Positions 339 through 24,254 of a stretch of DNA of 42,010 nt are shown here, piece by piece (the first letter of the stretch is position 1; each line of letters starts with the position of its first letter). The stretch is from an uncultured Rubrivivax sp. Lineage in GTDB: Bacteria; Pseudomonadota; Gammaproteobacteria; Burkholderiales; Burkholderiaceae_C. The notes under the pieces are model-generated. The model saw nothing but the letters and a program-made list of their open reading frames with translations. It was not told the origin of the DNA and did no database searches. The stretch is taken from contig CAYYYC010000001.1 of NCBI GenBank assembly GCA_964475695.1, positions 2,888 through 44,897 of the forward strand, read 5' to 3'. The position numbers were made by a program, and so were the translations under genes.

Positions 339-343
339 CGTCG

Positions 344-9402: not shown

Positions 9403-10694
9403 ACATCCTCATCACGGGCCATCACAGCCTGGGCAATCGGGGCTGCGAAGCGCTCCTGCGCTCAACAGTCGGCATGATCCGAAAGCGGCACCCTTCGAGT
9501 CGTTTCTGGGTGCCTTCCAGCCGGCCTTCAGCCGACGCCTCGCAGTGGCCCGAACACGCCGACAGCGGAGTCGAGTTCATCGATGTCCCGAAAAGCAGCC
9601 TGCTCCTGCGGAGCTGGGCCCGCGCCTGCGAAACGGCGCCACTGCTGTCGCGGGCATCCTGGCCCAGGGTGGAGCCGCCCGCGTCGTGGCGCCGGGTCAT
9701 TGGGCAAGTGGAGCTGACACTGTCCATCGGCGGGGACAACTACACGCTTGACTATGGGTTGGAGTCGCTGGCCTACCACGCCGGCGTGAACTCGTGGTCG
9801 ATCCGGCAGGGGGTGCCGGTCGTCCTTTGGGGGGCCTCGATCGGCCCGTTTTCGCGGGCGGATCTCCATGCGCGATCGATCGGGATCTCCATGCAGCGGC
9901 ACTTGGGCAGGCTCGCCGGGATCTCGGTGCGTGAATCTCTGACACAACGCCATCTCGATCAGATCCTGGGTACCGGGCCGGCTCCCTCGGGCGGGTTGCC
10001 GCGCGGTCGACGCCTGGTGACGGACCCCGCCTTCAATCTGGAGGCCCACCCCGCCGAGCTCCAGCGCTACTGGCCCGAAGGGGACGCACCCGTTGTCGGG
10101 CTCAACATCAGTCCCTACATGGTCGCAGGCCAAGGCGGCACGCACAGCGACGATCGAGCCGCGGGCGGCCTCGGCCTGGACGAGCTTGCCGGACTCGTCC
10201 GACAGCGATGCGAGTCGGGAGAGTTCAGATTCGTGCTCATTCCCCATGTCACCGCCCGAAATGCCGAGGGGGTTGATGTCCACTCGATCGGACCCGGCGC
10301 GGATGATGAAGTCCTGCTGGATCGCCTGTCGAGTCGTCTGGCGGGTGTGCGTGGGGTGGGACGGATTCCGGCCTGGGATGCGCCACGCCTGAAGTACGCC
10401 ATCGCTGCCTGTGATCTGTTCATCGGTGCTCGCACCCACTCGGTGATCGCGGCGCTGTCGAGCATGGTTCCGACCGTCGCGCTGGCCTACAGCGTCAAGG
10501 CCCACGGAATCCACCGAGACCTGTTCGGCCATGAGGACGGCGTCCTCGACAGGGCGGGGTTGAGCAAGGACAGTCTCGACCATGCGCTGAGCCGGCTGGC
10601 GCTGAGGTCCACGGCGGAAAAGGCACGGTTGTTGACCTTGATTCCCGACTGGCGCGCCAAAGCCATGCACGCTATGGATCTTCTTTCGCCATGA
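9399..10694 (+). CDS. Polysaccharide pyruvyl transferase family protein (PS_pyruv_trans, WcaK/CsaB-like)
   Basis: TTG at 9399 overlaps the nitroreductase stop (TTGA). N-terminus NILITGHHSLGNRGCEALL, plus IGGDNYTLDYG and GARTHSVIAALSSMVPTVALAYSVK. Confidence 0.7.
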   Translation: MNILITGHHSLGNRGCEALLRSTVGMIRKRHPSSRFWVPSSRPSADASQWPEHADSGVEFIDVPKSSLLLRSWARACETAPLLSRASWPRVEPPASWRRVIGQVELTLSIGGDNYTLDYGLESLAYHAGVNSWSIRQGVPVVLWGASIGPFSRADLHARSIGISMQRHLGRLAGISVRESLTQRHLDQILGTGPAPSGGLPRGRRLVTDPAFNLEAHPAELQRYWPEGDAPVVGLNISPYMVAGQGGTHSDDRAAGGLGLDELAGLVRQRCESGEFRFVLIPHVTARNAEGVDVHSIGPGADDEVLLDRLSSRLAGVRGVGRIPAWDAPRLKYAIAACDLFIGARTHSVIAALSSMVPTVALAYSVKAHGIHRDLFGHEDGVLDRAGLSKDSLDHALSRLALRSTAEKARLLTLIPDWRAKAMHAMDLLSP

Positions 10695-10704
10695 AATTCG
10701 CCGG

Positions 10705-11877
10705 GTGATCGGTCGACGCCAAACTTCAGCCCAGCCGCCTGCGGCCATCGCCATCGTCGGCTCCGATCCGGCCGCCCCGGGTGGAATCAGTCGTGTGATC
10801 CAACTCACGCTCAAGAGCCCATTGGCGGCGTGTTGGCGGCTGATCATGGTGCCCACATGGGTGGAGGGCTCGAGTCGGAAGCGGGCCTGCGCCTATCTGG
10901 GCTCGCTGGCGCAGATCTGGTGGATGGCGGCGGCAGGTCGGCTTCAGGCGGTTCATCTCCACATGGCTGCGCGTGGAAGCTTCTGGCGCAAATGGCTCAT
11001 CGGCATGCCGCTCACGCGTTCGGGCGTGCGCGTGATCGTCCATATCCACGATGGAACGCTCGCGAGCTGGCACGCGGCCCAGCATCCTTGGACACAGGCG
11101 CTGTTCCGGCGCTTCGTCGAGGATGCCGACGCCGTCATCGCCTTGAGCCCGGCCTGGAGGCAAGCCCTGGCACCACTGGCTCCGAAAGCCCGTTGGCTGG
11201 TGGTCTGCAATCCGGTGGCCATTCCCCGCTCGACGGCATTCTCCGCGCCATCCCCGAGCGACGGGAGCTTGTTCGCTTCCCCTTCCGACGCCGCTGGAAG
11301 GACCATTCTCTTTCTCGGGCGCCTCCGGGAGGAAAAGGGCCTGGAGGAACTGCTGTCCGCAGCCGTTGAGCTCGCCCGGATCCGGCCGGCTGACCGCTGG
11401 CTCCTGGGTGGCGATGGAGACATCGCTGCCGTCGGGCGCAGGCTCGCCGAACTTGGACTCACCCAGACGGTTCGGCTGCTCGGGTGGTTGAACGAGGAGC
11501 AGAAGAGCCGCGCACTTTCCTCGGCGGACCTGCTGACACTGCCTTCACACGCCGAGGGCCAGCCTCTGGCGGTTCTGGAGGCGATGGCCTGGGGGATCCC
11601 GGTGGTGGCCACCGACGTGGGGGACATCCCTCACCTCCTCGCCTGCGGCGCCGGCATTTCGGTGCCCCCAGGGGACCCACCCGCCCTCAGCGCTGCGGTG
11701 CTCCGCGTCTTGCAGGACCCTGAACTCTCGCAGCAGATGGGCGCCTGCGGTCGGCGCCATGCGTTTGAACACCACAGCGTGGAACGGGTGGCCTTCGAAC
11801 TCGACGCCCTGTATCGCCGGCTGGGACTTGTGCCCACGGCAGGCCCTCTTCTTCCTCCCCGGCAGGTCCGGAGCTGA
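10705..11877 (+). CDS. Family 4 (GT-B, Glycos_transf_1) glycosyltransferase
   Basis: GTG start 10 nt after the upstream stop. ILFLGRLREEKGLEELL, and the EX7E region PSHAEGQPLAVLEAMAWGIPVVATDVGDI. Confidence 0.8.
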   Translation: MIGRRQTSAQPPAAIAIVGSDPAAPGGISRVIQLTLKSPLAACWRLIMVPTWVEGSSRKRACAYLGSLAQIWWMAAAGRLQAVHLHMAARGSFWRKWLIGMPLTRSGVRVIVHIHDGTLASWHAAQHPWTQALFRRFVEDADAVIALSPAWRQALAPLAPKARWLVVCNPVAIPRSTAFSAPSPSDGSLFASPSDAAGRTILFLGRLREEKGLEELLSAAVELARIRPADRWLLGGDGDIAAVGRRLAELGLTQTVRLLGWLNEEQKSRALSSADLLTLPSHAEGQPLAVLEAMAWGIPVVATDVGDIPHLLACGAGISVPPGDPPALSAAVLRVLQDPELSQQMGACGRRHAFEHHSVERVAFELDALYRRLGLVPTAGPLLPPRQVRS

Positions 11878-11879
11878 TC

Positions 11880-13868
11880 ATGTGTGCGATTGCAGGCGTC
11901 TGGGCAAGGGAGCCCTTCAGCGCAGATCAGGTCCGACATTGGGCACTGGCCATGGCGGAGTCGATGCGACATCGCGGGCCGGATGGCGGGGGCGTCTGGG
12001 TTGATCCTGCCGCGGGTCTGGCCCTGGCCCATCGCCGCCTGGCCATCCGCGACCCGGGCCAGGGCGCCGCCCAGCCCATGGTTGACCCGGGGGACGGACA
12101 GGTCCTGGTCTTCAACGGCGAGATCGACAACCACCAGTCCTGGCGGACTGAACTGGCCCGACAAGGACGGCAGTTCGGCCATCTCGATCGGGCGACCAAC
12201 CGCCTCGGCTCGAGTCCTGGGGACACCGAGTCGCTGTTGCACGCCCTGAGCGCGTGGGGGGCGGATGCCGCTTGCCGACGGTCGCAAGGGATGTGGGCAT
12301 GGGGATGGTTCGAGCGGGCTTCGCAACGGCTCACCCTGTCGCGGGATCGAATCGGCAAGAAGCCCTTGTATTGGCTCGAAGCCGATTGGGGCATGGCGTT
12401 TGCATCCCAGATTCAGGCTTTCCGGCATCTCCCGATGTTCCACCCGGCCATCCACCCTCCAGCCCTGTCGCACTATTTGCGGTGGGGATTCATCGAAGGC
12501 CCCGACACCATGCTTGAGCGGGTGCATCGGGTGGAGCCGGGCCAGATCGTGACCTTCGAACGGGCAAAGCTGGCGTCCCGTCGCCGATATTGGAGCGTCA
12601 ATGAGGCCGTCGTCAACGGCGTTGAATCCAGGCTCGACTCGCCGGCCCTCGCTGAGCGGGAGTTGCTGCAGACACTCAGGCAGGCAGTTGCCGAGCGCAT
12701 GAGCACAGATGTGGAGGCCGGCGCCTTTCTCTCCGGCGGCATCGACTCGGCGTTGGTGGTGGCGTTGATGCAGGAGACCGCCGGCCAGACCCGAACCTGG
12801 TGTGTCGCCTTTGACGATCCGCAGCACGACGAATCTTCGCAGGCCCGCACGATTGCCGGCCTCCTCGGGACTCGCCATGAAACGGTGAGGGTGGACGGTC
12901 GCGCCGCAGCGGCTGTCTTGCCGAGTCTCTGCCAAATCATGGACGAGCCGATGGCCGATGCATCGCTGATTCCCACCGCGCTGCTTTCCCGGCATGCCGC
13001 GCAGCATGTCAAGCTGGTCCTGACCGGCGACGGCGGTGATGAGAATTTCGGGGGTTATCCGCGCTACCGCATGCACGGCGCGCTGATGAGGCGGTTGGGC
13101 GCGCTGCCCGCGGGCTCGCGCAGGGCCTTGGCCTGGACACTGGAACGCCTGAGCCCTGCCGAATGGGCGCAAGCGGCCCAATGGCTGCCACCGGGTTGGC
13201 GACCCACTCTGCCGGCCTCGAAGGTCGACAAGCTGGCTCGCTGGCTTCGTTGCGCCGACGACCAGGCGCGATCGCAGGTGGGACTGACCCGCTGGGAGCC
13301 TCGTCAACTCTGGCACGACGCGCCTGAAGACTCTCCCCTGCCCGAGTCGCTCCAGTGCGTTTCGGCGCCGATGGATTCGGCCATTCTTCGACTCGCACCC
13401 TCCGAGCAGATGCAGCGGATCGAGACGGCGCATTACCTGTGCGGCGACCTGCTGGCCAAGATGGACCGCGCAACGATGTGGAGCTCCCTGGAGGCCAGAA
13501 GCCCGCTGCTTGACCACCGTGTGGTTGCGACAGCCTGGCGGATCGCCCCAGGCCTCAAGGCCGATGGGCCGCGATTGAAGGAGGTGCTTCGCCGCTGTGT
13601 CGAGCACTACCTTCCCCGGGCGCTCATGGATCTGCCCAAGCGAGGATTCACTCCGCCCTTGGACCGATGGCTGCGTCATGACCTCAGGCCGGCGGCCAAA
13701 GAACTGCTCGAGGGGCTGATCGACCACACCAGGGATCGCTGGAATGGGGCCCTGGTGCGTGAGGCCTGGGCGATGCAGCAGACGGGAACCCGTCATGAGG
13801 TGGACCGGATCTGGACCCTGCTGGCCTTGGAAATGTGGCGCCGGGAATGGCGAGTGGATCTCCCATGA
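11880..13868 (+). CDS. Asparagine synthase (glutamine-hydrolysing) family amidotransferase, of the EPS/exosortase-locus type
   Basis: Ntn-type N-terminus MCAIAGVW. GATase-II region LVFNGEIDNH. PP-loop FLSGGIDSALVVALM. 662 aa. Confidence 0.85.
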   Translation: MCAIAGVWAREPFSADQVRHWALAMAESMRHRGPDGGGVWVDPAAGLALAHRRLAIRDPGQGAAQPMVDPGDGQVLVFNGEIDNHQSWRTELARQGRQFGHLDRATNRLGSSPGDTESLLHALSAWGADAACRRSQGMWAWGWFERASQRLTLSRDRIGKKPLYWLEADWGMAFASQIQAFRHLPMFHPAIHPPALSHYLRWGFIEGPDTMLERVHRVEPGQIVTFERAKLASRRRYWSVNEAVVNGVESRLDSPALAERELLQTLRQAVAERMSTDVEAGAFLSGGIDSALVVALMQETAGQTRTWCVAFDDPQHDESSQARTIAGLLGTRHETVRVDGRAAAAVLPSLCQIMDEPMADASLIPTALLSRHAAQHVKLVLTGDGGDENFGGYPRYRMHGALMRRLGALPAGSRRALAWTLERLSPAEWAQAAQWLPPGWRPTLPASKVDKLARWLRCADDQARSQVGLTRWEPRQLWHDAPEDSPLPESLQCVSAPMDSAILRLAPSEQMQRIETAHYLCGDLLAKMDRATMWSSLEARSPLLDHRVVATAWRIAPGLKADGPRLKEVLRRCVEHYLPRALMDLPKRGFTPPLDRWLRHDLRPAAKELLEGLIDHTRDRWNGALVREAWAMQQTGTRHEVDRIWTLLALEMWRREWRVDLP

Positions 13869-14365
13869 GCCCTGAGTCCAGGCCGGTGACCGTGTTGGCG
13901 ATTGCCTCCGGAGGGGGGCACTGGCTTCAGCTGTCTCGCCTGGCGCCGGCCTGGGCTGGCTGCCGCGTGGTCAGCGCCTGCGCGGCAGAGGCCCCGCCCC
14001 TGCCGGGAGGGGTTCTCAGCCACCACAGGCTCAGGGATGCCACCCGATGGAATCCCCGCGATGCCCTGGTGTTGGGTGCGCAGGTCGCTGTGCTGATCCT
14101 CAAGGCAAGGCCGGACATTGTGGTGACCACTGGGGCCCTGCCCGGTCTCTTTGGCGTGCTCTGGGGTCGACTGATTGGAGCGCACACGGTCTGGATCGAC
14201 AGCGTGGCCAATGTCCGGCGGGTTTCGGGTTCAGGCCGGATCGCCGGCCTCATCGCGCATGAATGGTGGACACAGTGGCCGCACCTCAGCCCCGGGCAGC
14301 GTGAGCCCTCCACCCGAAAGCATCCATTGGGCAGGAGGCCGGATTACCGTGGTTCGGTCTGGTGA
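13865..14365 (+). CDS. Alg14-like glycosyltransferase accessory subunit (PssD/CpsF-like)
   Basis: ATGA overlap with the amidotransferase stop. VLAIASGGGHWLQL, VVTTGALPG, VWIDSVANV. Confidence 0.65.
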   Translation: MSPESRPVTVLAIASGGGHWLQLSRLAPAWAGCRVVSACAAEAPPLPGGVLSHHRLRDATRWNPRDALVLGAQVAVLILKARPDIVVTTGALPGLFGVLWGRLIGAHTVWIDSVANVRRVSGSGRIAGLIAHEWWTQWPHLSPGQREPSTRKHPLGRRPDYRGSVW

Positions 14366-14915
14366 ACGGATCCGCGTCTTCCTGACCGTTGGATCGCAAA
14401 TGCCCTTCGACCGTCTGGTGGCTGCGGTTGCGGCGTGGGCCCAAGCCCGGCCGGCTGTGGCGGTGGTGGCTCAGGTCGGACAATCATCCTTGCCGGCGGG
14501 CACCCTTGAACAGGTGAATGCGCTTGAGAGCCTGCCGCCGGCAGCGTATCTGGACCAATGCCGCCTGTCGGATCTGATCGTGGCTCACGCCGGCATGGGG
14601 TCGATCCTGACGGCGCTGGAGCTCGACAAGCCCTTGGTGGTGATGCCCCGCCGCGGCGCTCTTCGGGAAACGAGAAATGACCACCAGTTCGACACGGCTC
14701 GGCACTTGATGCTGCGGGAAGCCCGTGCGGGGAAGAGCGCCATCAGCGTGGCGATGCAGGAGGATGCGCTGCCCGATGTGCTGGACCGGGCCTGTGGCCC
14801 TCGGCCTGGGCATTGCCCGGCGCTCCGGTCGAAAGGTCCGGCACCGGAGTCGGCAGCGCAGGCGGCACTGCGCGAGAGTCTGCGCGCCGTGATCCTGCGA
14901 AGGCGTCGTCTTTGA
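14349..14915 (+). CDS. Alg13-like / Glyco_tran_28_C catalytic subunit (PssE/CpsG-like)
   Basis: GTG at 14349 is the only canonical start upstream of the conserved N-terminus IRVFLTVGSQMPFDRLV. It overlaps the Alg14-like gene by 17 nt. IVAHAGMGSILTALE, and PRRGALRETRNDHQ matches the family pattern. Confidence 0.65.
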   Translation: MVRSGERIRVFLTVGSQMPFDRLVAAVAAWAQARPAVAVVAQVGQSSLPAGTLEQVNALESLPPAAYLDQCRLSDLIVAHAGMGSILTALELDKPLVVMPRRGALRETRNDHQFDTARHLMLREARAGKSAISVAMQEDALPDVLDRACGPRPGHCPALRSKGPAPESAAQAALRESLRAVILRRRRL

Positions 14916-14972
14916 GCCCTTGACTGTGGCCCGTGGCGGAAATCACGCAGCAGGCGCCCGCGGTGCATCCGG

Positions 14973-16328
14973 TCAGCGAAGGCGCCAGCGCAGACTGCAT
15001 TGCCACTGCCTGTCTCGCCACAGCACAAGGTCAGGGTCCTGGCCGGGCCAGTCATCGTCGAAACCTCGGCCCGACCGCAGTTCTCGCCGGACGACACAAC
15101 GCGCAGTCACCCTGTTCGTCAGATCCCAACTGAGCCCCAAGGATCGTCGATCGAGTCGATCTCGCCACCGCAGCATTGGTGTGGGAAGCCATGGCTGATT
15201 GATGCCGAAAAGCCAGGACTGCGATCCCAATCGATCGATCACATGCCAATCCATGCGCAGCTGCAGGCGAAATCCCAGATCCCACTGAACCCCGACCCTG
15301 GCCTGGCGCACCTCGTTGGCGCCCTGCAGGAGGAAGCCTGCTCCGCCGATCCCGGTCTCATAACCCTGGGACTGCTGTCCGCGGTCTCTTGACGCAGCCA
15401 GATTCAGGCTCCACGGAACAACCGGCCGCCAGCGGATTTCCGTTTGCAGGCTGTGGATGGCCGATTCGGTGGAGGCCTGCGACAGGGAGTCGGCCATGGC
15501 CTGCACCTGTGCGCCCGCCGCCGACAACAGCCATCGACGCTGCCCCCTTCCCATGGACATGCGCAGAGTCCACCCGTCTCCCGGGCGAGGCACCCAGCTC
15601 CACTCGGCGTCCCACACGGCCAGCCGGTAGTCCACCTCGGGGGAGGCGCCTGATGGCGTGACCACGGCCGTCTGCGTGCCTTGCAGCAGGCGGCGACCCA
15701 GGCTCCAGAAAAGGGTCTGCGCGAATTCGCCGCGAGCCAGAAGTCGCCATGTGTCCTGCCCATACCCGGGCCACCAGGTCTGCGGTCGATTGGGCTGCAA
15801 CTCCTCGCGTTGCCACTGGGCCTCCAGGCTCCATGCCCTCTGCACGCCCCACTGGAAAGCGGCTCCGCGCTGCTCGAAGGTCTGCACCCGCCTCTCGCCC
15901 GTGGTCGGATCCAGCCGAAGCTGTCCCTCCAGCGCGTCCTGCTGGCGCTGCCAGCTCAACCTTGCTCCCAGGTCGGCCGCTGTCTCCAGATCAAGGCGCG
16001 CACCCACTCGATAGGCCTGGTGGTCCAGAGCGCCCTCGTTGGCATAGTGGGTGTTCGCCAGGCGCCCGAATCCGACAAGCCGCTGCCGGCCCCACCCGTG
16101 GCGATAGGTGCCATCCAGGATCGAGATGGAAGCGGTGTCGGGCGATGTGGGAAGGCCAGGACGGGCCTGCAGCGGATTGGCTTCCTGCAGAACGGCCTGC
16201 TCGATGGCCACGCTCAGGCCCTCCTGCGAGGCGGCCGGAGCGGCGCCGGGATTCGTCTGGGCCAGGGCGATCCCGACATCACCCAGGACGGCCAGAGACA
16301 GGCCGGCAACGAGACGCCGCGCTGGCAT
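14973..16328 (-). CDS. Outer-membrane beta-barrel protein, EpsL-like / PEP-CTERM-system-associated barrel
   Basis: The internal ATG at 16328 sits 4 nt after the upstream stop. Signal peptide MPARRLVAGLSLAVLGDVGIALAQ. Many alternating amphipathic strands rich in W/R/Q (AFQWGVQRAWSLEAQWQ, VGVQWDLGFRLQLRMDW). Family call is by context. Confidence 0.5.
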   Translation of the reverse strand: MPARRLVAGLSLAVLGDVGIALAQTNPGAAPAASQEGLSVAIEQAVLQEANPLQARPGLPTSPDTASISILDGTYRHGWGRQRLVGFGRLANTHYANEGALDHQAYRVGARLDLETAADLGARLSWQRQQDALEGQLRLDPTTGERRVQTFEQRGAAFQWGVQRAWSLEAQWQREELQPNRPQTWWPGYGQDTWRLLARGEFAQTLFWSLGRRLLQGTQTAVVTPSGASPEVDYRLAVWDAEWSWVPRPGDGWTLRMSMGRGQRRWLLSAAGAQVQAMADSLSQASTESAIHSLQTEIRWRPVVPWSLNLAASRDRGQQSQGYETGIGGAGFLLQGANEVRQARVGVQWDLGFRLQLRMDWHVIDRLGSQSWLFGINQPWLPTPMLRWRDRLDRRSLGLSWDLTNRVTARCVVRRELRSGRGFDDDWPGQDPDLVLWRDRQWQCSLRWRLR

Positions 16329-16332
16329 GAAG

Positions 16333-17868
16333 TCACCAGGCCTTGGCATCTTTGAAGACCAATCCAACGGTCCGCAGGACGATCTGGAAATCCAGCGACA
16401 GCGACCAGTTTTGGAGGTAGAAGAGGTCATGCTCCACCCTTCGGCGCATCTTCTCCACGGTCTCCGTTTCCCCTCTGAAGCCATTGACTTGCGCCCATCC
16501 CGTGATCCCGGGACGAACCTTGTGGCGGAGCATGTAGGCGATCACCAGACCCCGGTACTGCTCGTTGTGGGCCAACGCATGCGGCCGTGGACCGACCACA
16601 CTCATGCGGCCCTGCAGGACATTGATGAACTGAGGCAGCTCATCCAGGGATGTGCGCCGCAGGAATCTGCCGAGCCGGGTGACTCGGGTGTCTTCGCGGG
16701 TGGCCTGTCGGACATTGCGGCCGTCTTCCATCACGCTCATCGTCCTGAACTTCCAGACCTCGATGACCCGACCATTCAGCCCGAGTCGCCTTTGGCGAAA
16801 GAGGGCAGGCCCGGCGGACTCAAGCCGCACCGCGATTCCGATGAGCAGCATCAGGGGCGAGAGGATCAGGAGTGCCATGGACGCCAGGGCCAGATCGCTG
16901 AGTCTCTTGGCCGCGCCATCAATGCCGCCGTAGGGTGACTCCGTCAGGCCGATGAGCGGCAGCCCGTCGAGGGTGCCGATGTTTCCCTGCACAACGGTGC
17001 CCTTCAAGACATCGGGAACCCACCTGACCGTCACCGTGCTGTCTGCGATGGCTCGCCACATTCGAAGGTCGGCCTGTCTCTGCGGTTGCGCGCCCTGTCT
17101 TTCATCGGATGGCGTGGTGAGATAGAGCTCGTCGAGCAATCCATGCTTCAGATGCGACTCCAGTTCCCGGATACCGCCCAGCCGGCGGCTCCTGGCGCCG
17201 CCGTGCCCTACCCCACCGCGCCGACTCGAGGGCCCGTCGGCAAGATCAAACCAGCCCATGAATCGACGCGCCTGAACTCCCTTCAGACGCCGAAGGGCCC
17301 TTGCGGTCCGCAGGCCCATCGGGCCGATGCCGACGACCGCGGCATTGGGCATTTGCGCCCTCAGCAGCCAACGAGCCCAGGCCGCCGCCACGACAGCGAT
17401 CAGTCCCTGATGAACCACAGGCGCAGCCACCAGCCATGACGCCCACAGCGGCAGGTTCATGCTCAGCAGCCCCCGGGTCGCCCAGGCGCAGAGTGCCAGA
17501 ACCAACGCCAGCATCACACCGTTGAAGGCGGCGGTGCTCCAGCGCAGCCATCGGCTGGCGAACAGATGGTCGGGCGCCGGGAAAGTCAGCGCCAGGACCA
17601 ACAGCAGCAGCCCCCAGTCGACATCCCCGATCGTCTGGAATGGGCTCGGAACTGTCCGCTCACCTTGCGCTTGGGCAGACTGGGGCGCCGCAACCCCACC
17701 CCACTGCGGCCCGAGCAGGCTCTGGATGAAGGCCAGCAGCAGAAACACCGTCACGAAGACGAGCGGCTCCAGCACAGCAGACACCCATGCCGATCCGGCT
17801 GCAGGCGCTGGCCTGAACAGCAGGGGCCGAGAGGGTTGGGTGGACGCGGTCGAATCTGGCCGATGCAT
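16333..17868 (-). CDS. Undecaprenyl-phosphate hexose-1-phosphate transferase (WcaJ/EpsB-type priming glycosyltransferase)
   Basis: N-terminal TM bundle plus a C-terminal Bac_transf domain: LILSPLMLLIGIAVRLESAGPALFRQRR, KFRTM, DELPQFINVLQGRMSVVGPRP, PGITGWAQV. Confidence 0.85.
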   Translation of the reverse strand: MHRPDSTASTQPSRPLLFRPAPAAGSAWVSAVLEPLVFVTVFLLLAFIQSLLGPQWGGVAAPQSAQAQGERTVPSPFQTIGDVDWGLLLLVLALTFPAPDHLFASRWLRWSTAAFNGVMLALVLALCAWATRGLLSMNLPLWASWLVAAPVVHQGLIAVVAAAWARWLLRAQMPNAAVVGIGPMGLRTARALRRLKGVQARRFMGWFDLADGPSSRRGGVGHGGARSRRLGGIRELESHLKHGLLDELYLTTPSDERQGAQPQRQADLRMWRAIADSTVTVRWVPDVLKGTVVQGNIGTLDGLPLIGLTESPYGGIDGAAKRLSDLALASMALLILSPLMLLIGIAVRLESAGPALFRQRRLGLNGRVIEVWKFRTMSVMEDGRNVRQATREDTRVTRLGRFLRRTSLDELPQFINVLQGRMSVVGPRPHALAHNEQYRGLVIAYMLRHKVRPGITGWAQVNGFRGETETVEKMRRRVEHDLFYLQNWSLSLDFQIVLRTVGLVFKDAKAW

Positions 17869-17959
17869 GAGCAGATCCCAGTTTCATGCAGCGGCCATAG
17901 CCTGCTGGCCACATTTCTCAAAGTCGGCAGCCAAACAGCGAAGATCATCGGGTCCCCCG

Positions 17960-17988
17960 TTGCCGCACGGCTGATGCCGTCAAAGATT
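17960..17988 (+). promoter_or_regulatory. Candidate sigma70-like promoter for the tviB-like gene (TTGCCG - 17 nt - AAGATT)
   Basis: Hexamer spacing read directly in the 179-nt divergent intergenic region. Both hexamers are imperfect. Confidence 0.15.
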
Positions 17989-18014
17989 CATCATCCCGAG
18001 CCCGCAGCACAACA

Positions 18015-18031
18015 CCTCAGCAGTCCTGAGG
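18015..18031 (+). promoter_or_regulatory. Small 5'-leader hairpin CCTCAG-cagtc-CTGAGG 17 nt upstream of the tviB-like ATG
   Basis: 6-bp inverted repeat read directly. No SD-like sequence is evident between it and the ATG. Confidence 0.15.
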
Positions 18032-18047
18032 CGCATCCCACCACGCA

Positions 18048-19322
18048 ATGAACCTCCAGAGCATTCGACTGGCCGTCATCGGCCTTGGCTATGTCGGCCT
18101 GCCGCTGGCCGTGGAATTCGGCAACCAGAGGCCGGTCGTCGGATTCGACATCTGCGAGCGTCGGGTGCGCGAGATCAACGATGGACAAGACTCCACTGGC
18201 GAGATCCCCGAGGAGGCAATCCGACGCTCCACGGGGCTGGTCTGCACCCACCGGCCGGATGATCTGAGGCCCTGCAACTGCTACATCATTGCGGTGCCCA
18301 CACCCGTGGACCGGCACAAGAGGCCAGACCTCTCAGCCCTGATCAGCGCAAGCCGGACGGTGGCTCAAGTGCTCAAGCCAGGGGACATCGTGATCTATGA
18401 GTCGACGGTCTATCCAGGCTGCACGGAAGAGGATTGCGTTCCCGTCCTGGAGCAGAAGTCCGGGCTGAAGTTCAACCGCGACTTCTTTTGCGGCTACAGC
18501 CCGGAGCGTGTCAATCCCGGCGATCGGGAACGCCCCATTTCCAGCATCACCAAGATCACCTCGGGTTCGACCGCCGAAATCGCCGATCTCGTCGATGGCC
18601 TGTACCGGCAGATCATCAGCGCCGGCACCCACAGGGCCGAGAGCATCCGGATTGCCGAGGCCGCCAAGGTGATCGAGAACGCCCAGCGGGACCTCAACAT
18701 TGCCTTCGTCAACGAGGTCTCACACATCCTGAGTCGAATGGGGATCGACACCGAGGCGGTTCTTCGCGCCGCATCCACCAAGTGGAACTTCATGAAGCTG
18801 CAGCCGGGTTTGGTGGGCGGGCACTGCATCGGCGTCGATCCCTACTACCTGATCCACAAGGCCCACGCCGTAGGCTACACACCCGAGGTGATGCTGGCGG
18901 GCCGGCGGGTGAACGAACGAATGGGCGCCCATGTGGCGGATCGGCTCATCGATGCGCTGCGGGATCGAGGCCTGGAACTCGACGAAGCCCGGGTGTTGGT
19001 GCTGGGGCTCGCCTTCAAGGAGAACTGCTCCGACCAACGAAACACCCGGGTCGCCGACATCGTCCAGGGGCTGTGCGCCAAGGGCTGCCAGGTGGATGTG
19101 TTTGATCCCTGGGTCACCCGCGGCATCGGTCATCAGGACCACGGCATCCTGCCCGTCAGTGCCCCGGAAACCGGAGCCTATGACGCGATCGTCGTGGCAG
19201 TGGCCCACCGTCAGTTCAAGGAGATGGGCTTGACCGGCATTCGGCGGTTCGGCAAGGAAAAGGCGCTGATCTACGACCTGAAATATGTCCTGCCGGCCGC
19301 ACAGGCCGACTTGAGGCTGTGA
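18048..19322 (+). CDS. tviB: UDP-N-acetylhexosamine 6-dehydrogenase (TviB/WbpO-type nucleotide-sugar dehydrogenase)
   Basis: Rossmann N-terminus RLAVIGLGYVGLPLAVEFG...VVGFDI...R...INDGQDSTGE. Catalytic region GLVGGHCIGVDPYYL. 424 aa. Confidence 0.75.
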   Translation: MNLQSIRLAVIGLGYVGLPLAVEFGNQRPVVGFDICERRVREINDGQDSTGEIPEEAIRRSTGLVCTHRPDDLRPCNCYIIAVPTPVDRHKRPDLSALISASRTVAQVLKPGDIVIYESTVYPGCTEEDCVPVLEQKSGLKFNRDFFCGYSPERVNPGDRERPISSITKITSGSTAEIADLVDGLYRQIISAGTHRAESIRIAEAAKVIENAQRDLNIAFVNEVSHILSRMGIDTEAVLRAASTKWNFMKLQPGLVGGHCIGVDPYYLIHKAHAVGYTPEVMLAGRRVNERMGAHVADRLIDALRDRGLELDEARVLVLGLAFKENCSDQRNTRVADIVQGLCAKGCQVDVFDPWVTRGIGHQDHGILPVSAPETGAYDAIVVAVAHRQFKEMGLTGIRRFGKEKALIYDLKYVLPAAQADLRL

Positions 19323-19372
19323 GCCCCAACAGGAAGAAGCAATGCATCGAGTTCAGGCTGCAATCCGATCGA

Positions 19373-19765
19373 TCAGCGCTTCCGCCCGTCGGGCGCTCCC
19401 TCATGGTTCAGGACATGGTCAATCACGCGAAGGAGTTCCTCGTCACTCGCACGTCGCGGGTCACAGGGGCTCATCCGAATCGGCGCGTAGTTGCCGACAG
19501 CGCCGCCACGCAGCCTTTGAACCAGCAACGCACGCTCTTCAGGCGCCATTCCACGGTTGTTCTTGGCAATTTCCTGAAACGAGGGACCTATCCATGGGCG
19601 GTCCGACCTGTGGCACATCAGACAGCCGGCGCGCCTCATGATCTCATTGACGCGCTCAGTGTCATGCGAATTCCCGCCTGCCGCCCCCGCCGTCATCCAC
19701 GGGATCATGCATGCAGCAGTGAACGAGGCGGTGATTCGTGCGGCGGGAAGGAATTTCATGCTCAT
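19373..19765 (-). CDS. Small periplasmic c-type cytochrome (c551/c552-like)
   Basis: Signal-like N-terminus. Single haem motif GCLMCH followed by the c551-like pattern WIGPSFQEIA ... GGAVGNYAPIRMSP (distal Met candidate). The start may be ATG 19765 or ATG 19759. Confidence 0.7.
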   Translation of the reverse strand: MSMKFLPAARITASFTAACMIPWMTAGAAGGNSHDTERVNEIMRRAGCLMCHRSDRPWIGPSFQEIAKNNRGMAPEERALLVQRLRGGAVGNYAPIRMSPCDPRRASDEELLRVIDHVLNHEGAPDGRKR

Positions 19766-19795
19766 GGAGTGCCAAGCATCGCCGACCCAGTCGCT

Positions 19796-21409
19796 TCAGA
19801 TTCTGAGCACCTGCAACAGAACCACGATTTCCGAACTCAGTCTCTCAGAGGAGCGCGAACCCAGGCCCAGCCAGCCCCTTTGACGGCTTTCGGTTTGGCT
19901 TGACTCGTTCAGCCCACCCAACATCAGCACTTCGCCCGAGCGGGCCACGACATCGGTTCTGAAGGCCCTGCGCAGCTTGGTGGGCGTGCTCGACAAGCCT
20001 GTCTCCGTCTTGGCGAAAGAGGAAATCTCCTGCCAGATCATCAGCCGAATAGACTCGTTGAGGATGTTGGGACTGACATTCAGCAGCACGCCGGCGCTCT
20101 GATAAGCCACGCTTTGCTGCACAGCCCCGCTGAAGGTGATGATGGAGCCCAAGGTTGGCGTGTCGGTGCCGATGGTCACCGATGCGGTGCTCCCATCGGC
20201 AACCCGAAGGGTCGGACTCGAAACCAGGCGCACCCGGCTGTCTCCGGTCAACCGCGAAATGGCCAGAGACATGTCTCGTCCGCCCAGGAAGATCCGGTTC
20301 AGCTCGGACGGCACGACGCCAATGTCGATGGTGAGCCGTTCCGACAGGAGATTCATCAGCAGCTGAACCGCGCCGCTTTGGCTGTGTTGATCGCGCACCT
20401 CCAACACATACATCCTCAACTGGACTTCGGGCAACGGAATGTCGACGCGTTCCATGAAGGCCTGGAGCTGTGCAATGTCCCTCGGCAAGCCCCTCACGAT
20501 CAGAAATGAAGGGTCGCCGATGCCCGCAGCGGATCCGGTGAAGGTGGACGTGTTGTAGCTGGCGGTCGTGGAAGGCGTCAGAGTCCCCAGGCCAGGGAAG
20601 GCAGCCCCCCCGGCGGACGGTGATGGGCCCCACGATTCATTGGCAGGCCACCCGGAGGATGGGTTGGCCATTGAACTGGCCGGCTGCATCAAGCCGGAGC
20701 CCGATGTCGGATCCGACCCATGGGATCGAGGCGATGCCACCGGCGCATAGATGAAGCGAAGCCTCGGAAAGTTCGGAAAGTAAGGCGCCAGGCTGTGGAT
20801 GGGCCGATTCCTTGGTGAGTACACCCAGGTCTCTTGCTGATCCTCCGCCGGATCAAGTTCACGACGCAACTGGATGATGGTCACGCCCGAGGACTCGACC
20901 ATCTCCAGTCCAAGGTTCTGCAGGACCAGCCGGACCAATTCCTGCGGGTCCGCGAGCTCAGCGCCCGCAAGGTCACCAATGAGGCCGATGGGCTTGTCCG
21001 CGAGTCCAGGCATCAACAGGTAGGGCCTGTCGGACGTGCGTCCCAGGGTTCGCTTGAGAAACTCGGGCAGGCTGATCGGTTCTGGCGCCGCGACACGGGG
21101 AGGGCGTCCACCCGCCCCATTGGGCGCAGGGACTGAAGCAGCAGGTGCACTGCCCGGCTTTTGTGCCGTGGCAGGCGCGCCAACGGGAGCGGCGGAACCC
21201 CGCGCGGCCGCAGGAAGTGCCGGCTGGGTTCGCACGACCCACCAGGCCGGGGGTGGGGGAGGCGTATTGACGGGTTGTGGCGGTGCGGTAGTGATCTCCG
21301 GTCGTGCGGATTCGCTGGCTGTCAACAGCATCATCAGGACCAATGCCGCAACCCCTCCCGCCTTGATTTGCGGCCGACCGCCAAGGCACTTTTCAGGGCA
21401 GATTGACAT
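19796..21409 (-). CDS. Secretin-family outer-membrane channel with minimal (N0 + one ring domain + secretin) architecture
   Basis: C-terminal secretin domain: VRLVSSPTLRVADGSTASVTIG, VAYQSAGVLLNVSPNI, RTDVVARSGEVLMLGGL, EIVVLLQV. N3-like element FLIVRGLPRDIAQLQAFMERVD...EVQLRMYVLEV. Start is uncertain: ATG 21409 gives a signal-like peptide, ATG 21433 has a GGGG SD-like upstream. Confidence 0.7.
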   Translation of the reverse strand: MSICPEKCLGGRPQIKAGGVAALVLMMLLTASESARPEITTAPPQPVNTPPPPPAWWVVRTQPALPAAARGSAAPVGAPATAQKPGSAPAASVPAPNGAGGRPPRVAAPEPISLPEFLKRTLGRTSDRPYLLMPGLADKPIGLIGDLAGAELADPQELVRLVLQNLGLEMVESSGVTIIQLRRELDPAEDQQETWVYSPRNRPIHSLAPYFPNFPRLRFIYAPVASPRSHGSDPTSGSGLMQPASSMANPSSGWPANESWGPSPSAGGAAFPGLGTLTPSTTASYNTSTFTGSAAGIGDPSFLIVRGLPRDIAQLQAFMERVDIPLPEVQLRMYVLEVRDQHSQSGAVQLLMNLLSERLTIDIGVVPSELNRIFLGGRDMSLAISRLTGDSRVRLVSSPTLRVADGSTASVTIGTDTPTLGSIITFSGAVQQSVAYQSAGVLLNVSPNILNESIRLMIWQEISSFAKTETGLSSTPTKLRRAFRTDVVARSGEVLMLGGLNESSQTESRQRGWLGLGSRSSERLSSEIVVLLQVLRI

Positions 21410-22331
21410 GAACGGCCAGATCAGCAGGACCATACTGACCCCGACTGTCCAATGCGAGCACCGCACGCCGGAAGTGGACGGTTCGCTGCGGCATGGTCAT
21501 GTCCCACGGATTCAGGTTGGTCCAGTGATAGATGCCATGCTTGATGTAGGGCTGAGCCGTCGGGGTGTTGTAGCCGACGGGGCCGCTGTAGTTCACGACA
21601 GGCTGGCCATTGATCCATGTTTGAAGGCGTGGGCTTGCCGCCGCTTGGGTCGAGACAAGCGCGCGGGTCACGAAGGTCAGCCATGTGTTGGGTGGCCAGC
21701 CATTGCTGCTCCACAGCACGCGAGTGACGGTGGTGTTTCGGCTGGGCGTGGTCGCCGTGTCGTAACGCATGACCAGCCGCATCTGTGGTCCGCGAACCAG
21801 AAGGCTGTAGATGGGCTGCAGCCCTGTGGTGTCTCCTGCATGCCACTGCATGAGTTGCTGCTCATCGGTGGTCTTTCGCCAGTCTGGAATCTGGATCGCA
21901 AAGGCATGCCAGAAGACCTTGCCGATCGGCAGTCCAGTGGCCCCTGGGCTGAAGGTGGTTTCGCACCGAGGCGCTCCTGCCGTGGGAGGGTCTGAAGGAA
22001 TGACCGTCATGCGCAGTGACACACGACCGGCTTCGGATGGATCCGGTGCCCGGCCGAATCGAAGAGTTCCGCCCAGAGGAAGCACGGATCCGTTGATTCC
22101 TCCCTCAGCCAGCTTTGCCATCGGGACAAAGAGTCCGTAGCACTGGGCAACGCCCCATGGCTGCAGACTGAATGGCGCCGAGGGAATGAGCTGTACGACG
22201 ATGTCTTCCCGCATCAGAGTGGCAGATTGGACAGCAACAGGGACCCACATCAGGGGCGCCGTGACGAGCATCGTCGCTGCCGCGCGGAATATCGAGTCTC
22301 CGCAGGAGATCTTTCGCCGAAGAAACTTCAT
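21393..22331 (-). CDS. Secreted concanavalin-fold polysaccharide-lyase-like protein (PF14099 / heparinase-I-like)
   Basis: ATG at 22331 is preceded by GAGGGG 6 nt upstream. Signal-like N-terminus. The lyase-family pattern is read by eye: RCETTF, FWHAFAIQIP, QLMQWHAGD, WLTFVTRALV, LQTWINGQPV, PYIKHGIYHW, VHFRRAVL. Confidence 0.5.
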   Translation of the reverse strand: MKFLRRKISCGDSIFRAAATMLVTAPLMWVPVAVQSATLMREDIVVQLIPSAPFSLQPWGVAQCYGLFVPMAKLAEGGINGSVLPLGGTLRFGRAPDPSEAGRVSLRMTVIPSDPPTAGAPRCETTFSPGATGLPIGKVFWHAFAIQIPDWRKTTDEQQLMQWHAGDTTGLQPIYSLLVRGPQMRLVMRYDTATTPSRNTTVTRVLWSSNGWPPNTWLTFVTRALVSTQAAASPRLQTWINGQPVVNYSGPVGYNTPTAQPYIKHGIYHWTNLNPWDMTMPQRTVHFRRAVLALDSRGQYGPADLAVHVNLP

Positions 22332-22436
22332 GGGTAACCCCTCGGATAGTCGAAGCATGATCCACGAGACGCTTCAGCGCGGGTTGAGAGGTCTCAATCT
22401 CCCGGGAGCCGAATGTCCACCGCCCCATCGAATCGA

Positions 22437-23453
22437 TCAACCGCCGAAGCCGTTGGGGTTGAGGGACTGCCAGCGCCAGGCATCCCGCAGCATCTCATCC
22501 AGACCTCGCATGGCTTTCCAGCCCAACTCTCTTTGCGCCTTGGTGGGATCAGCGTGGCATATCGCGATGTCTCCAGGTCGGCGCGGCGCCATTCGGCAGG
22601 CCACGGTCCTCCCGCTGACGGCTTCGAAGGCAGCCACCATCTCCAGCACGCTGTAGCCTCTGCCGGTGCCCAGGTTCCACACATGGACGCCGCACTGGCG
22701 TTGCAACGCCTGCAAGGCGCGCAGGTGGCCCTCAGCCAGGTCCATCACATGGATGTAGTCGCGCACCCCAGTGCCGTCCGGCGTCGGATAGTCGTGGCCG
22801 AACACCGTCAGCGCGGGCACCGCCCCCGCGGCAACCCGGGCAATGCAAGGTAACAGGTTGTTGGGGATGCCCTTGGGGTCTTCGCCGATCAGCCCGCTTT
22901 CATGGGCGCCGACCGGGTTGAAATATCGCAGGATGGCGACACGCCAGCGCGGATCAGACCGAGCCAGATCGCTGAGCATGTCCTCCACCACAAGCTTGGT
23001 TCGGCCATAGGGGTTGGTTGGCCTGCCCACGGGACATGTCTCCGAAATGGGCATCTGTACTGCATCTCCATAAACCGTGGCCGAGGAACTGAAGACAACG
23101 CGGAACACACCCGCATCGGCTGCGGCCTCAAGCAGCACTTGGCTCCCGTGGACATTGCTGCCGTAGTAGCGCATCGGGTGGGCAATGCTTTCTCCGACAG
23201 CCTTCAGCCCGGCAAAGTGCAGCACGGCATCGATGGAGTACACCGCAAACAATCGGCGCAGCAGTGCGGAATCGCGGATGTCTCCCTCAATGAAGACAAG
23301 ATCCCGCTCCGCAAGCCGGGACACTCGAGTGATCGACTCGCGCGAACTGTTGCAGAGACTGTCCAGAACGACCATCTCGATGCCCGCCTGCAGCAGGCAC
23401 AAGGCCGTGTGCGAGCCAATGTAGCCTGCCCCACCTGTCAGCAATACCCGCAT
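22437..23453 (-). CDS. galE: UDP-glucose (or UDP-HexNAc) 4-epimerase
   Basis: Internal ATG at 23453 gives MRVLLTGGAGYIGSHT. The YxxxK region is PYGRTKLVVEDML. 338 aa, typical of GalE. Confidence 0.85.
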   Translation of the reverse strand: MRVLLTGGAGYIGSHTALCLLQAGIEMVVLDSLCNSSRESITRVSRLAERDLVFIEGDIRDSALLRRLFAVYSIDAVLHFAGLKAVGESIAHPMRYYGSNVHGSQVLLEAAADAGVFRVVFSSSATVYGDAVQMPISETCPVGRPTNPYGRTKLVVEDMLSDLARSDPRWRVAILRYFNPVGAHESGLIGEDPKGIPNNLLPCIARVAAGAVPALTVFGHDYPTPDGTGVRDYIHVMDLAEGHLRALQALQRQCGVHVWNLGTGRGYSVLEMVAAFEAVSGRTVACRMAPRRPGDIAICHADPTKAQRELGWKAMRGLDEMLRDAWRWQSLNPNGFGG

Positions 23454-23506
23454 CGCCCACGGCCTGAAGAAAAGCGCGAGCCTGTCACCCCGGGAAGCCT
23501 TGGGGC

Positions 23507-23525
23507 TTGAGGAGGCTCTCCTCAA
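23507..23525. promoter_or_regulatory. 19-nt inverted repeat TTGAGGAG-gct-CTCCTCAA in the divergent galE / OM-barrel intergenic region (candidate operator or RNA hairpin)
   Basis: Perfect 8-bp arms with a 3-nt spacer, read directly. It lies 54-72 nt upstream of galE ATG 23453 and 67-85 nt upstream of ATG 23592. Confidence 0.25.
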
Positions 23526-23591
23526 CGCGGGAAAGACGCCCCGAATTCGATACGATCTCCTGGCTTGCGGGATTCGACTCAAGGAGCTTTG

Positions 23592-24254
23592 ATGCATCAC
23601 TCGCCAACACGCAGCCTGTCGATGGCTTGCGTCATCCTCGGGATCTGCCTTTGGGCTCCGGCCCACGCCGGCCGGCCTCTCACGGTGGACGACGCCGGCA
23701 CCAATGCCCAGGGCCAGGGCCATGTGGAAGCCTGGTTCGGGCGCATGCCGGGCCATTCCAACACCTGGAACCTGTCGCCCGCCTACGCCCCTGCCGAAGG
23801 CCTTGAGTTCTCAGCGCTGGTGATGCGCGATGGCACCCAGCGCGCCGACGCCCAGGCGCTGCAGGTCAAGTGGCTGCTCAACCCGCAATCCGATGAGGGC
23901 TGCAACAGTGCCGTCGTGGTGGGCACAGCCTGGGCCCGATCGTCGGGCGCGGCGCAGTCCACCCCCTACCTCAACGGCCTGCTGAGCTGCCGCAGCGGTT
24001 CCTGGGCCGCTCACGCCAACCTCGGCGGCCAGAAGCCTCAGGGGCAGCCCACGACACCCACCTGGGGACTGGCGCTGGAGAAGGCCTTGGGCAAGGTCAC
24101 TGCCCATGCAGAGGCCTTCGGCGAGCGCCATGGCAGGCCGACGCGACAGGTGGGCCTGCGCGGCGACCTGCGCCCCGGCCTGCAGCTCGACGGCACGCTC
24201 GGCCGGGGCCAGGGCTTTGCCGTGTACAGCCTGGGGATCAAACAGTCGTTTTGA
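23592..24254 (+). CDS. Small outer-membrane beta-barrel protein (MetA-pathway/'transporter' PF13557-like)
   Basis: AAGGAG lies 5 nt upstream of ATG 23592. Signal peptide ending APAHA. RPLTVDDAGTNAQGQGHVEAWF resembles the family N-terminus. C-terminal ...YSLGIKQSF ends in Phe. Confidence 0.45.
   Translation: MHHSPTRSLSMACVILGICLWAPAHAGRPLTVDDAGTNAQGQGHVEAWFGRMPGHSNTWNLSPAYAPAEGLEFSALVMRDGTQRADAQALQVKWLLNPQSDEGCNSAVVVGTAWARSSGAAQSTPYLNGLLSCRSGSWAAHANLGGQKPQGQPTTPTWGLALEKALGKVTAHAEAFGERHGRPTRQVGLRGDLRPGLQLDGTLGRGQGFAVYSLGIKQSF

Follow-up and report, generated by a model that had tools for sequence, protein, structure and literature searches.

A polysaccharide-lyase-like gene coupled to a secretin gene of the inovirus pIV family beside an exopolysaccharide locus in an uncultured Rubrivivax sp.

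What might a secretin do when the gene coupled to it encodes an enzyme? The question is raised by a 42,010-nucleotide stretch of DNA from an uncultured Rubrivivax sp. (GCA_964475695.1, contig CAYYYC010000001.1, positions 2,888 to 44,897; hereafter the window, with coordinates counted from its first letter), in which a gene for a putative secreted polysaccharide lyase overlaps a gene for a minimal secretin at the edge of an exopolysaccharide (EPS) biosynthesis locus. To our knowledge, every secretin that has been studied belongs to a large, energy-driven machine, of which it is the outer-membrane end, be it a type II secretion system (T2SS), a type III secretion system (T3SS), a type IV pilus (T4P) system or a phage assembly apparatus. 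A secretin maintained over a long period with a single enzyme gene would raise the prospect that secretin gates might open by substrate alone, or that there is a partner yet to be recognised, and the two-gene size of the system makes it experimentally tractable. An earlier note on this DNA, made from the sequence alone, had described the pair within a set of three co-directional minus-strand genes, the coordinates of which all hold. It had recognised neither the phage ancestry of the secretin nor the conservation of the third gene, encoding a cytochrome c, in the subclade to which the window belongs.

The lyase-secretin cassette

The first gene of the cassette (21393-22331, minus strand) starts with ATG and encodes a protein of 312 aa with a Sec-type signal peptide. 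A Shine-Dalgarno-like GAGGGG can be read in the sequence (22338-22343, minus strand) 6 nt 5′ of this ATG, and the N-terminus carries a hydrophobic, signal-like segment, both in keeping with the earlier description. The second gene (19796-21409, minus strand) encodes the secretin, with a length of 537 aa from the ATG at 21409 or 545 aa from the ATG at 21433; a GTG at 21466 is a further in-frame start, and the open reading frame (ORF) ends at 19796. The lyase stop codon (21393-21395) lies within the first codons of the secretin gene, 17 nt inside its ORF with the start at 21409 or 41 nt with the start at 21433 (junction overlap 21393-21433, minus strand). The two genes are taken to overlap because a signal peptide for the secretin is obtained only from these upstream starts. 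The third co-directional gene (19373-19765, minus strand) encodes a class I c-type cytochrome of 130 aa of the c551/c552 type, and the set of three is bounded by a TviB-like UDP-sugar dehydrogenase gene (18048-19322, plus strand) and a galE-like gene (approximately 22437-23450, minus strand). Scanned against Pfam and NCBIfam, the main ORFs of the window include no genes for T2SS, T4P, tight adherence (Tad) pili, T3SS or phage assembly, as had been noted before, and there are no gsp or pil neighbour genes in the window. Genes for an ATPase, a platform, a pilin or a pilotin, and phage genes, are missing from the company of the cassette.

Phage ancestry of the secretin

The secretin assignment is borne out by a match to PF00263 (Secretin; E=7.2e-18, 65 bits against a cut-off of 27.5, residues 408-529) and by Foldseek searches, in which the top 39 PDB matches were all secretins. 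The Secretin_N family (PF03958), which the earlier note had named as one to check, was not matched in the Pfam scan. The NCBIfam models for cellular secretins gave scores far under their cut-offs, with 72 bits against 351 for GspD (TIGR02517; E=2.7e-20, partial), 56 bits against 284 for PilQ (TIGR02515), and likewise for SctC, MshL and HofQ. Public annotations of the cassette proteins read 'GspD' or 'hypothetical'. A much stronger and longer match than that of any cellular secretin model was found in the PHROGs collection, where residues 112-537 align with positions 29-400 of the 403 of phrog_1012, annotated as 'assembly (protein IV of M13)' (E=2.4e-62). The earlier note had called the secretin pIV-like rather than a GspD or PilQ; the full-length phrog_1012 match goes beyond that claim, with the protein actually being of phage descent.

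The relatives of the secretin are in keeping with this assignment. A tblastn search against 50,697 GenBank phage records returned 14 matches, all of them inoviruses (Dulem viruses, human saliva inoviruses and Vibrio fs2/VFJ); no close relatives were found among IMG/VR viral contigs. In a search of 5.8 billion proteins the matches formed a compact family with about 40 clusters; GspD-type proteins came only after a break in E from 1e-72 to 1e-11 (1e-129 to 1e-27 with a profile). The short members of this family (approximately 445-460 aa) are 38-48% identical to the window secretin, and in all five that were examined (P0032, from a Roseateles asaccharophilus prophage; P0033; P0017; P0037; and L016, from a metagenome scan) the gene lies directly 3′ of Zot/pI, in an array of a replication protein gene, small genes, a pIII-sized gene (approximately 555 aa), a 98-aa gene, Zot and the secretin. 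The long members, among which is the window secretin, have 500-550 aa. An exhaustive HMMER scan of 1.84 billion representatives identified 501 relatives at E<=1e-30, the next-nearest of which are 400-450 aa long and matched across the whole profile, with 32 of 32 sampled representatives matching phrog_1012.

In neighbour-joining (NJ) trees the long secretins form one clade (bootstrap 94%, rising to 100% with more outgroups) that splits into two subclades, P0001-P0006, which includes the window secretin, and P0008-P0015 (subclade 2). When the tree was rooted with more distant pIV-like proteins this long, lyase-linked clade fell among the Zot-linked lineages, with weak support for the NJ backbone (12-39%). 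Since every neighbour and outgroup is a pIV, the parsimonious reading of these trees would be that a cellular lineage captured a phage pIV once. By gene context the window secretin departs from a phage pIV, in that its upstream gene is a lyase gene and not pI/Zot, and a tblastn search with Zot found nothing in the lyase-linked loci L003-L030, with L031-L033 and the window not queried with Zot. The proposal, made in the earlier note, of a displaced gspD or pilQ paralogue was rejected on the NCBIfam scores and on the phylogenetic position of the secretin among inovirus pIVs, the nearest relatives of which stand beside Zot in phage genomes.

The domain layout of the secretin also follows that of pIV, consisting in f1 of N0, N3 and secretin domains without an S-domain or pilotin (PMC8563730). 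The AlphaFold2 (AF2) monomer model of the window secretin has a mean pLDDT of 62, with folded parts at 72-95, and its domain pattern agrees with the minimal N0-N3-secretin arrangement proposed earlier. On the minus strand, a signal peptide of approximately residues 1-35 (21305-21409) probably ends at SESA, before RPE (...KAGGVAALVLMMLLTASESA followed by RPE), judging from the hydrophobic segment and the alignment of homologues. It is followed by a Pro/Ala-rich N-terminal extension (residues 36-110, 21080-21304; pLDDT <50) longer than in the phage clade, an alpha/beta N0-like periplasmic domain (residues 111-222, 20744-21079; pLDDT 72-90) and a disordered Ser/Gly/Pro-rich linker (residues 223-299, 20513-20743; pLDDT approximately 30), again longer than those of phage pIVs. 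A single beta-alpha-beta N3-like ring domain (residues 300-345, 20375-20512; pLDDT 86-95) leads into the beta-barrel and gate (residues 346-537, 19799-20374), which run to the last residue with no S-domain; the HofQ and SctC profile alignments begin at residue 322. The lyase-linked and the phage clades have 19 conserved N0 positions in common. The barrel and gate region is the most conserved part of the family, with zero indels between the two clades, and the window secretin is full length and retains every family-invariant residue. By sequence and layout it is a true member of the inovirus pIV family. Since there are just five clade-fixed differences between the lyase-linked and phage secretins, the clade-specific changes are uninformative on any new function.

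Two phage elements came to light among the related loci. The nearest isolate-genome source of a phage-type secretin is an apparently intact inovirus prophage in Roseateles asaccharophilus (L001, JAVDXV010000006.1, 5699-17354), which lies between two RadC-like genes and carries Zot, pIV, Phage_GPA, a MazE-like antitoxin gene and a large serine recombinase. The other is an 11-kb inovirus-like contig (L024), in which the ORF at 203-2794 joins a Phage_GPA replication initiator and a UvrD-type helicase in one protein of 863 aa, an arrangement unusual among filamentous phages.

Family and fold of the lyase

The product of the first gene matches PF14099 (Polysacc_lyase; E=2e-20, 74 bits against a cut-off of 29.9) over residues 94-283, and its AF2 model is a beta-jelly roll (pLDDT 88, pTM 0.84). 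The best PDB match in Foldseek was to the PL20 endo-beta-1,4-glucuronan lyase 2ZZJ (E=4e-11, target TM 0.68), with further matches to PL13 heparinase I (3IMN) and to PL7 glucuronan/alginate lyases (7NDE/5ZQI); across these four structures E ranged from 4e-11 to 2e-8 and the target-normalised TM-scores from 0.44 to 0.71. Family match and predicted fold thereby uphold the polysaccharide-lyase assignment of the earlier note. Sequence comparison with solved structures gave no match at E<=1 and a single chance match at E<=10.

The 31 lyase homologues form a tight family, 44-86% identical over the alignment, in which R122, E124, Q162, Y262, K264, G266, Y268 and the pair Cys64/Cys123 are invariant and H164 is nearly so, being Asn in two homologues. 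The conserved motifs R122-C-E124, Q162-W-H164 and Y262-x-K264-H-G266-x-Y268 resemble the PL7 signatures RxELR, QIH and YFKAGxYxQ, and may hold the catalytic Gln, His and Tyr (plus Arg) of the cleft. The two conserved cysteines would be compatible with a periplasmic disulfide. With its PF14099 match, predicted fold and motifs the protein looks like an active enzyme. A phage origin of the lyase was considered and rejected, there being no match in a tblastn search of the same 50,697 GenBank phage records, no match in PHROGs and only generic jelly-roll matches among the predicted viral structures of BFVD.

Conservation, selection and decay of the cassette

The earlier note had let its proposal depend on the adjacency of lyase and secretin being conserved in relatives. 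A lyase homologue lies directly 5′ of a long-clade secretin in 17 loci (L003-L006, L008-L011, L013-L015, L019-L021, L028-L029 and L031) as well as in the window, and does so in every long-clade locus with enough upstream DNA. In subclade 2 the junction is an invariant ...CCGTGA, in which a GTG start and a TGA stop share a 4-nt overlap, the same type of overlap as at the Zot-pIV junction of inoviruses; in L028 lyase and secretin are separated by a 12-nt gap. The cassette occupies at least five genomic contexts: the edge of an exosortase-B (XrtB) EPS locus beside galE in the window; a site flanked by putA and, at the opposite end, by an XrtB EPS locus (L006/L013); a site with GT2 and PMT_2 glycosyltransferases (L003-L005); a site between asd/truA/trp and hydantoinase/DctPQM genes (L019-L021); and a rhodanese/DUF2237 site near the rplQ-rpoA ribosomal cluster (L028-L033 and L022).

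Lyase and secretin form a unit, with pairwise identities of the two proteins across 12 loci correlating at r=0.95. Nei-Gojobori estimates of dN/dS in subclade 2 were 0.07-0.15 for most pairs of lyases, with two near-identical pairs at 0.215 and 0.689, and 0.05-0.11 for the secretins; between the window and L028 the values were 0.12 for the lyase and 0.27 for the secretin, at a dS near saturation. The two genes are co-inherited and under purifying selection. Because of this selection, and because all family-invariant residues are kept, the secretin is not decaying prophage scrap, and a decaying remnant was rejected for the window copy on dN/dS and full-length conservation. Of the degenerate remnant of a larger system that the earlier note had offered as one explanation, the descent from a larger system stands, this being phage assembly, and the degeneration does not, the window copy being under purifying selection.

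Other copies have decayed. L007 has lost most of the lyase, L022 keeps the lyase with the secretin down to a 29-aa piece, in L030 the lyase is gone along with residues 1-187 of the secretin, and L032/L033 carry a deletion across the lyase-secretin junction. The existence of these copies marks the cassette as accessory and repeatedly lost. A decay series can be followed at one chromosomal site, that of the rhodanese/DUF2237 genes, in the related genomes L022 and L028-L033, in which L028 is intact, L031 apparently so, and L032/L033, L030 and L022 are damaged; it amounts to a natural experiment on the dispensability of the cassette. In L031 (2351-2570) the conserved N-terminal motif of the secretin (QVTTAPPQPVNTPPP) is out of frame with the nearest ATG past the lyase stop, which suggests that the secretin start is frameshifted, by assembly error or truly.

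The adjoining EPS locus

The cassette lies at the edge of a complete-looking EPS locus of the XrtB/PEP-CTERM type (3-19322), which begins with the C-terminal part of a peptidyl-prolyl isomerase (PPIase) gene cut by the edge of the window. Its XrtB scores 290 bits against a cut-off of 275. The locus further encodes a Wza-like Poly_export/SLBB protein, a GNVR co-polymerase (PCP), EpsI, GT2 and GT4 glycosyltransferases, a pyruvyl transferase, an AsnB-type amidotransferase, Alg14/GT28C, an initiating sugar transferase and the TviB-like dehydrogenase. The last of these suggests that the polymer contains uronic acid. The ORF at 14973-16484 is weakly EpsL-like, and the large ORFs at 4174-5811 and 6641-8476 matched no family.

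The EPS neighbourhood described in the earlier note recurs in L013 and L006, two freshwater Betaproteobacteria metagenome-assembled genomes with secretins approximately 52% identical to that of the window. In these two loci genes for a PEP-CTERM protein and a PPIase come immediately after the cassette, and beyond them lies Wza-PCP-XrtB-EpsI-orf545-GT2-orf611, EPS genes that keep the order of window 3-8476 and are 48-79% identical to them, such that the cassette flanks an orthologous XrtB locus in the window and in L013/L006, at opposite ends. In addition, the most divergent lyase homologue (P0074, in L034) is an outgroup protein of 416 aa that has a lipobox-like LSAC and is not accompanied by a secretin. 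Its gene converges on AsnB/Alg14/GT28C genes with 42-47% identity to those of window 11880-14915. These three independent arrangements (window, L013/L006 and L034) therefore link the lyase family to the XrtB-type EPS locus, and the link is probably real. Exosortase/PEP-CTERM EPS loci are associated with floc formation in Burkholderiales, and as far as we know the turnover of the matrix at such loci is poorly understood; the lyase would be a candidate matrix-remodelling enzyme tied to them.

The PEP-CTERM protein encoded between secretin and EPS locus in L013 (11559-12500) and L006 (7901-8839) has 313 aa and a C-terminus of VPEPGSTALLMAGLSVLGFVGRRRRL. We know of no established mechanism by which PEP-CTERM proteins pass the outer membrane, and the juxtaposition of its gene with that of the secretin may deserve attention.

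Relation to known systems

The closest likeness of the secretin is to inovirus pIV (f1 pIV, PDB 7OFH; PHROG 1012), with which it shares family, an N0-linker-N3-secretin layout, the lack of an S-domain and of a pilotin gene, and the type of gene overlap. The window secretin differs in standing outside a phage genome, with a lyase gene upstream in place of that for the pI/Zot ATPase, in its longer Pro-rich N-terminus and N0-N3 linker, and in being inherited chromosomally under purifying selection. A functional analogy exists with T2SS in which folded, Sec-exported pectate or polysaccharide lyases leave through GspD, as in the Out system of Dickeya; however, a T2SS relies on approximately 12 other genes, for an ATPase, a platform, pseudopilins and in many cases a pilotin, none of which is near the cassette, and GspD has N0-N1-N2-N3 where the window secretin has N0 and a single N3. 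Secretins apart from their machines are known as orphan or borrowed secretins (XqhA of P. aeruginosa; EpsD and PilQ for CTXphi-type phages), but these are of the GspD/PilQ type and serve a complete machine elsewhere, whereas here a phage secretin has passed to a host and has a specific enzyme gene joined to it.

Polysaccharide-cleaving enzymes are also found beside outer-membrane channels at EPS loci in AlgL/AlgE, PelA/PelB and BcsZ/BcsC. The channels of these synthase-dependent systems are 16-18-strand monomeric barrels, their enzymes belong to other families (e.g. PL5) and the synthase is included, whereas the cassette pairs its enzyme with a multimeric gated secretin at a Wza/exosortase-type EPS locus. 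Two-partner secretion (TpsA/TpsB) resembles the cassette in having one cargo gene, one outer-membrane transporter gene and no ATPase, but there is no homology, and the Omp85 barrel of TpsB threads unfolded cargo, whereas protein passing through the secretin would be folded.

In the full-text literature searched, for orphan secretins among other subjects, we came across no account of a lyase-secretin cassette or of a domesticated pIV, in line with the earlier claim that the arrangement had not been described, and a review of mobile-element recruitment in prokaryotes mentions neither secretins nor inoviruses (PMC8987985). The arrangement may be an undescribed minimal route for an enzyme or polymer across the outer membrane. 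It documents the capture of an inovirus morphogenesis gene by a host, of which the literature searched holds no report. Were the gate to work without an ATPase, it would represent a new minimal class of outer-membrane protein export together with a clear domestication of an inovirus gene, and the system would be categorically new if the lyase and secretin genes alone move the lyase.

A proposed gate for the lyase and its alternatives

The explanation that we favour, and to which we give roughly an even chance, is that the domesticated phage secretin is a dedicated gate for an EPS-directed lyase. A Burkholderiales ancestor would have captured the gene for an inovirus pIV exit pore, which would then have lost its partner Zot/pI and become operon-coupled to a resident, EPS-locus-associated polysaccharide lyase. 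Both proteins would be exported by Sec, with the lyase folding in the periplasm, where its Cys64-Cys123 pair would stabilise it, and the secretin self-assembling, pilotin-free like phage pIV, into a gated multimeric outer-membrane pore through which the folded lyase (approximately 30 kDa) would exit the cell. Outside, the lyase would trim or depolymerise the uronic-acid-containing exopolysaccharide of the XrtB locus, the likely purpose being matrix remodelling or floc dispersal. Of this scheme, the data establish the phage ancestry of the secretin, its coupling and co-inheritance with the lyase, the purifying selection on both genes, the intact gate and N0 domain, the fold and motifs of the lyase and the recurring EPS neighbourhood; we infer the identity of the lyase as cargo of the secretin, the opening of the gate in the absence of an ATPase and the substrate of the lyase. 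The more demanding form, in which the captured secretin opens for the lyase alone as a self-contained, ATPase-free device with no pseudopilus, platform or pilotin, we regard as doubtful.

Several observations weigh against such a gate, the main difficulty being energetic. We know of no secretin that passes cargo without an inner-membrane ATPase and platform, and opening of the f1 gate is thought to need pI/pXI acting via N0 (PMC8563730). The gate regions and N0 of the lyase-linked secretins are as conserved as those of phage pIVs, and their sequences carry no sign of a self-opening channel or of a new docking surface. A T2SS, a T4P system or a pIV-less prophage encoded beyond the 42-kb window might use the pore. 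Three of the contexts have no EPS genes in the available flanks; these genomes may carry the locus elsewhere. Finally, the decay of several cassettes means that both genes can be dispensed with and that the lyase can survive on its own.

The energetic difficulty would be avoided if the lyase were periplasmic and the secretin passed polymer or oligosaccharide rather than protein, which would require no energy source for moving a folded protein. Sugar might be exported, with the lyase as a clearing or trimming enzyme like AlgL beside AlgE, or poly- and oligouronates might be imported for periplasmic degradation. PL7, PL13 and PL20-type enzymes are usually extracellular, the adjoining EPS locus encodes its own Wza-type exporter, the cassette is also found far from EPS genes and the gate is intact and conserved. 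These points make a sugar conduit unlikely in our judgement, in spite of the repeated position of the cassette beside an EPS biosynthesis locus, the reported need for secretins in exopolymer slime secretion by cyanobacteria and myxobacteria (PMC12475490) and the passage of maltooligosaccharides through leaky pIV variants (PMC8563730). The secretin might alternatively not be autonomous and work through inner-membrane machinery encoded elsewhere, be it the platform of a T2SS or T4P system or the pI/Zot of an inovirus that is resident and lacks pIV; the lyase would then be a T2SS-like substrate or an EPS-clearing helper. The N0 domain contacts pI/pXI in f1 and many inoviruses borrow host secretins (PMC8563730), the 19 conserved N0 positions are common to the Zot-linked pIVs, and related inoviruses infect the same bacterial group, as the Roseateles prophage illustrates. 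This dependence on outside machinery is nevertheless distinctly unlikely, given that such genes are missing from the 19-20 kb around the cassette in the window, that the Zot search of L003-L030 was negative (the window and L031-L033 not having been included), that the scores of the GspD and PilQ models fall far under their cut-offs and that service to a phage would leave the strict coupling and co-inheritance of the lyase unexplained.

The two remaining alternatives take the phage ancestry of the secretin as their starting point. A chromosomal pIV might hinder superinfecting inoviruses, for instance by forming mixed, non-functional multimers, or act in defence in some other way, and the patchy, often lost and lower-GC cassette does resemble accessory or defence genes. 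Such a conflict role is nonetheless highly improbable, since it offers nothing for a tightly coupled and highly conserved lyase to do, leaves the association with the EPS locus unexplained and finds no PADLOC match for any of the three proteins, on which ground an annotation as anti-phage defence was rejected. That the window copy is an inert, decaying prophage remnant, as the phage descent of its secretin and the decayed copies in relatives could suggest, we consider barely credible in view of its full length with all family-invariant residues kept, dN/dS values of 0.05-0.27 and the retention of the same partner across clades that share only approximately 52% identity.

The cytochrome c gene and features of the surrounding DNA

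The product of the third gene has a signal-like N-terminus, a CLMCH haem motif and an IRMSP motif, and matches solved c551/c552 structures (PDB 1DVV/2PAC) at E=2.6e-9 to 5e-9; the match to the Pfam cytochrome family PF00034, which the earlier note had named as one to check, is under the cut-off (17.3 bits against 21.3). CxxCH cytochrome homologues lie directly 3′ of the secretin in L030 (47% identity) and L032/L033 (58%), where the cytochrome survives next to a damaged secretin, and in L031 a different gene occupies this position, of which the first 38 codons are present before the contig stops. The gene was not seen in subclade 2. As such the cytochrome is a conserved third member, specific to the subclade of the window, with no obvious link to lyase or secretin.

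The cassette has a GC content of 0.62 and the three genes a GC3 of 0.69-0.73, against 0.75-0.88 in neighbouring genes; across 18000-24000 the GC content of the window goes down to 0.62-0.64, against 0.65-0.70 elsewhere. This low GC and GC3 fits a foreign origin of the cassette by horizontal acquisition. Direct repeats or att-like sites flanking the cassette were limited to chance-level matches of 12-21 nt. The inverted repeat TTGAGAGGTCTCAA (TTGAGA-GG-TCTCAA) proposed earlier as an operator is present exactly at 22384-22397. A role as an operator found no support and was set aside: the window contains 16 perfect 6-bp inverted repeats spaced by 2 nt, and 132 when spacers may be 0-6 nt long, a chance-level frequency, and the repeat is absent from the 30 related loci searched (L001-L030).

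A promoter scan gave one promoter-like site, located within the cytochrome gene, and a terminator scan gave no terminator-like site between the lyase gene and the co-directional galE-like epimerase gene (22437-23450, minus strand) 5′ of the cassette; co-transcription of galE with the cassette is possible. The ORF divergent from galE (23565-24254) has a product of 229 aa whose N-terminus is signal-like and which matched no family in Pfam or NCBIfam; it may be a small protein of the outer membrane or periplasm. The galE ORF (22437-23756) is open over 439 codons with homology from approximately residue 102 (MRVLLTGGAGYIG), and the true start is probably near 23450, which would leave approximately 100 nt of extra intergenic space before the divergent ORF at 23565.

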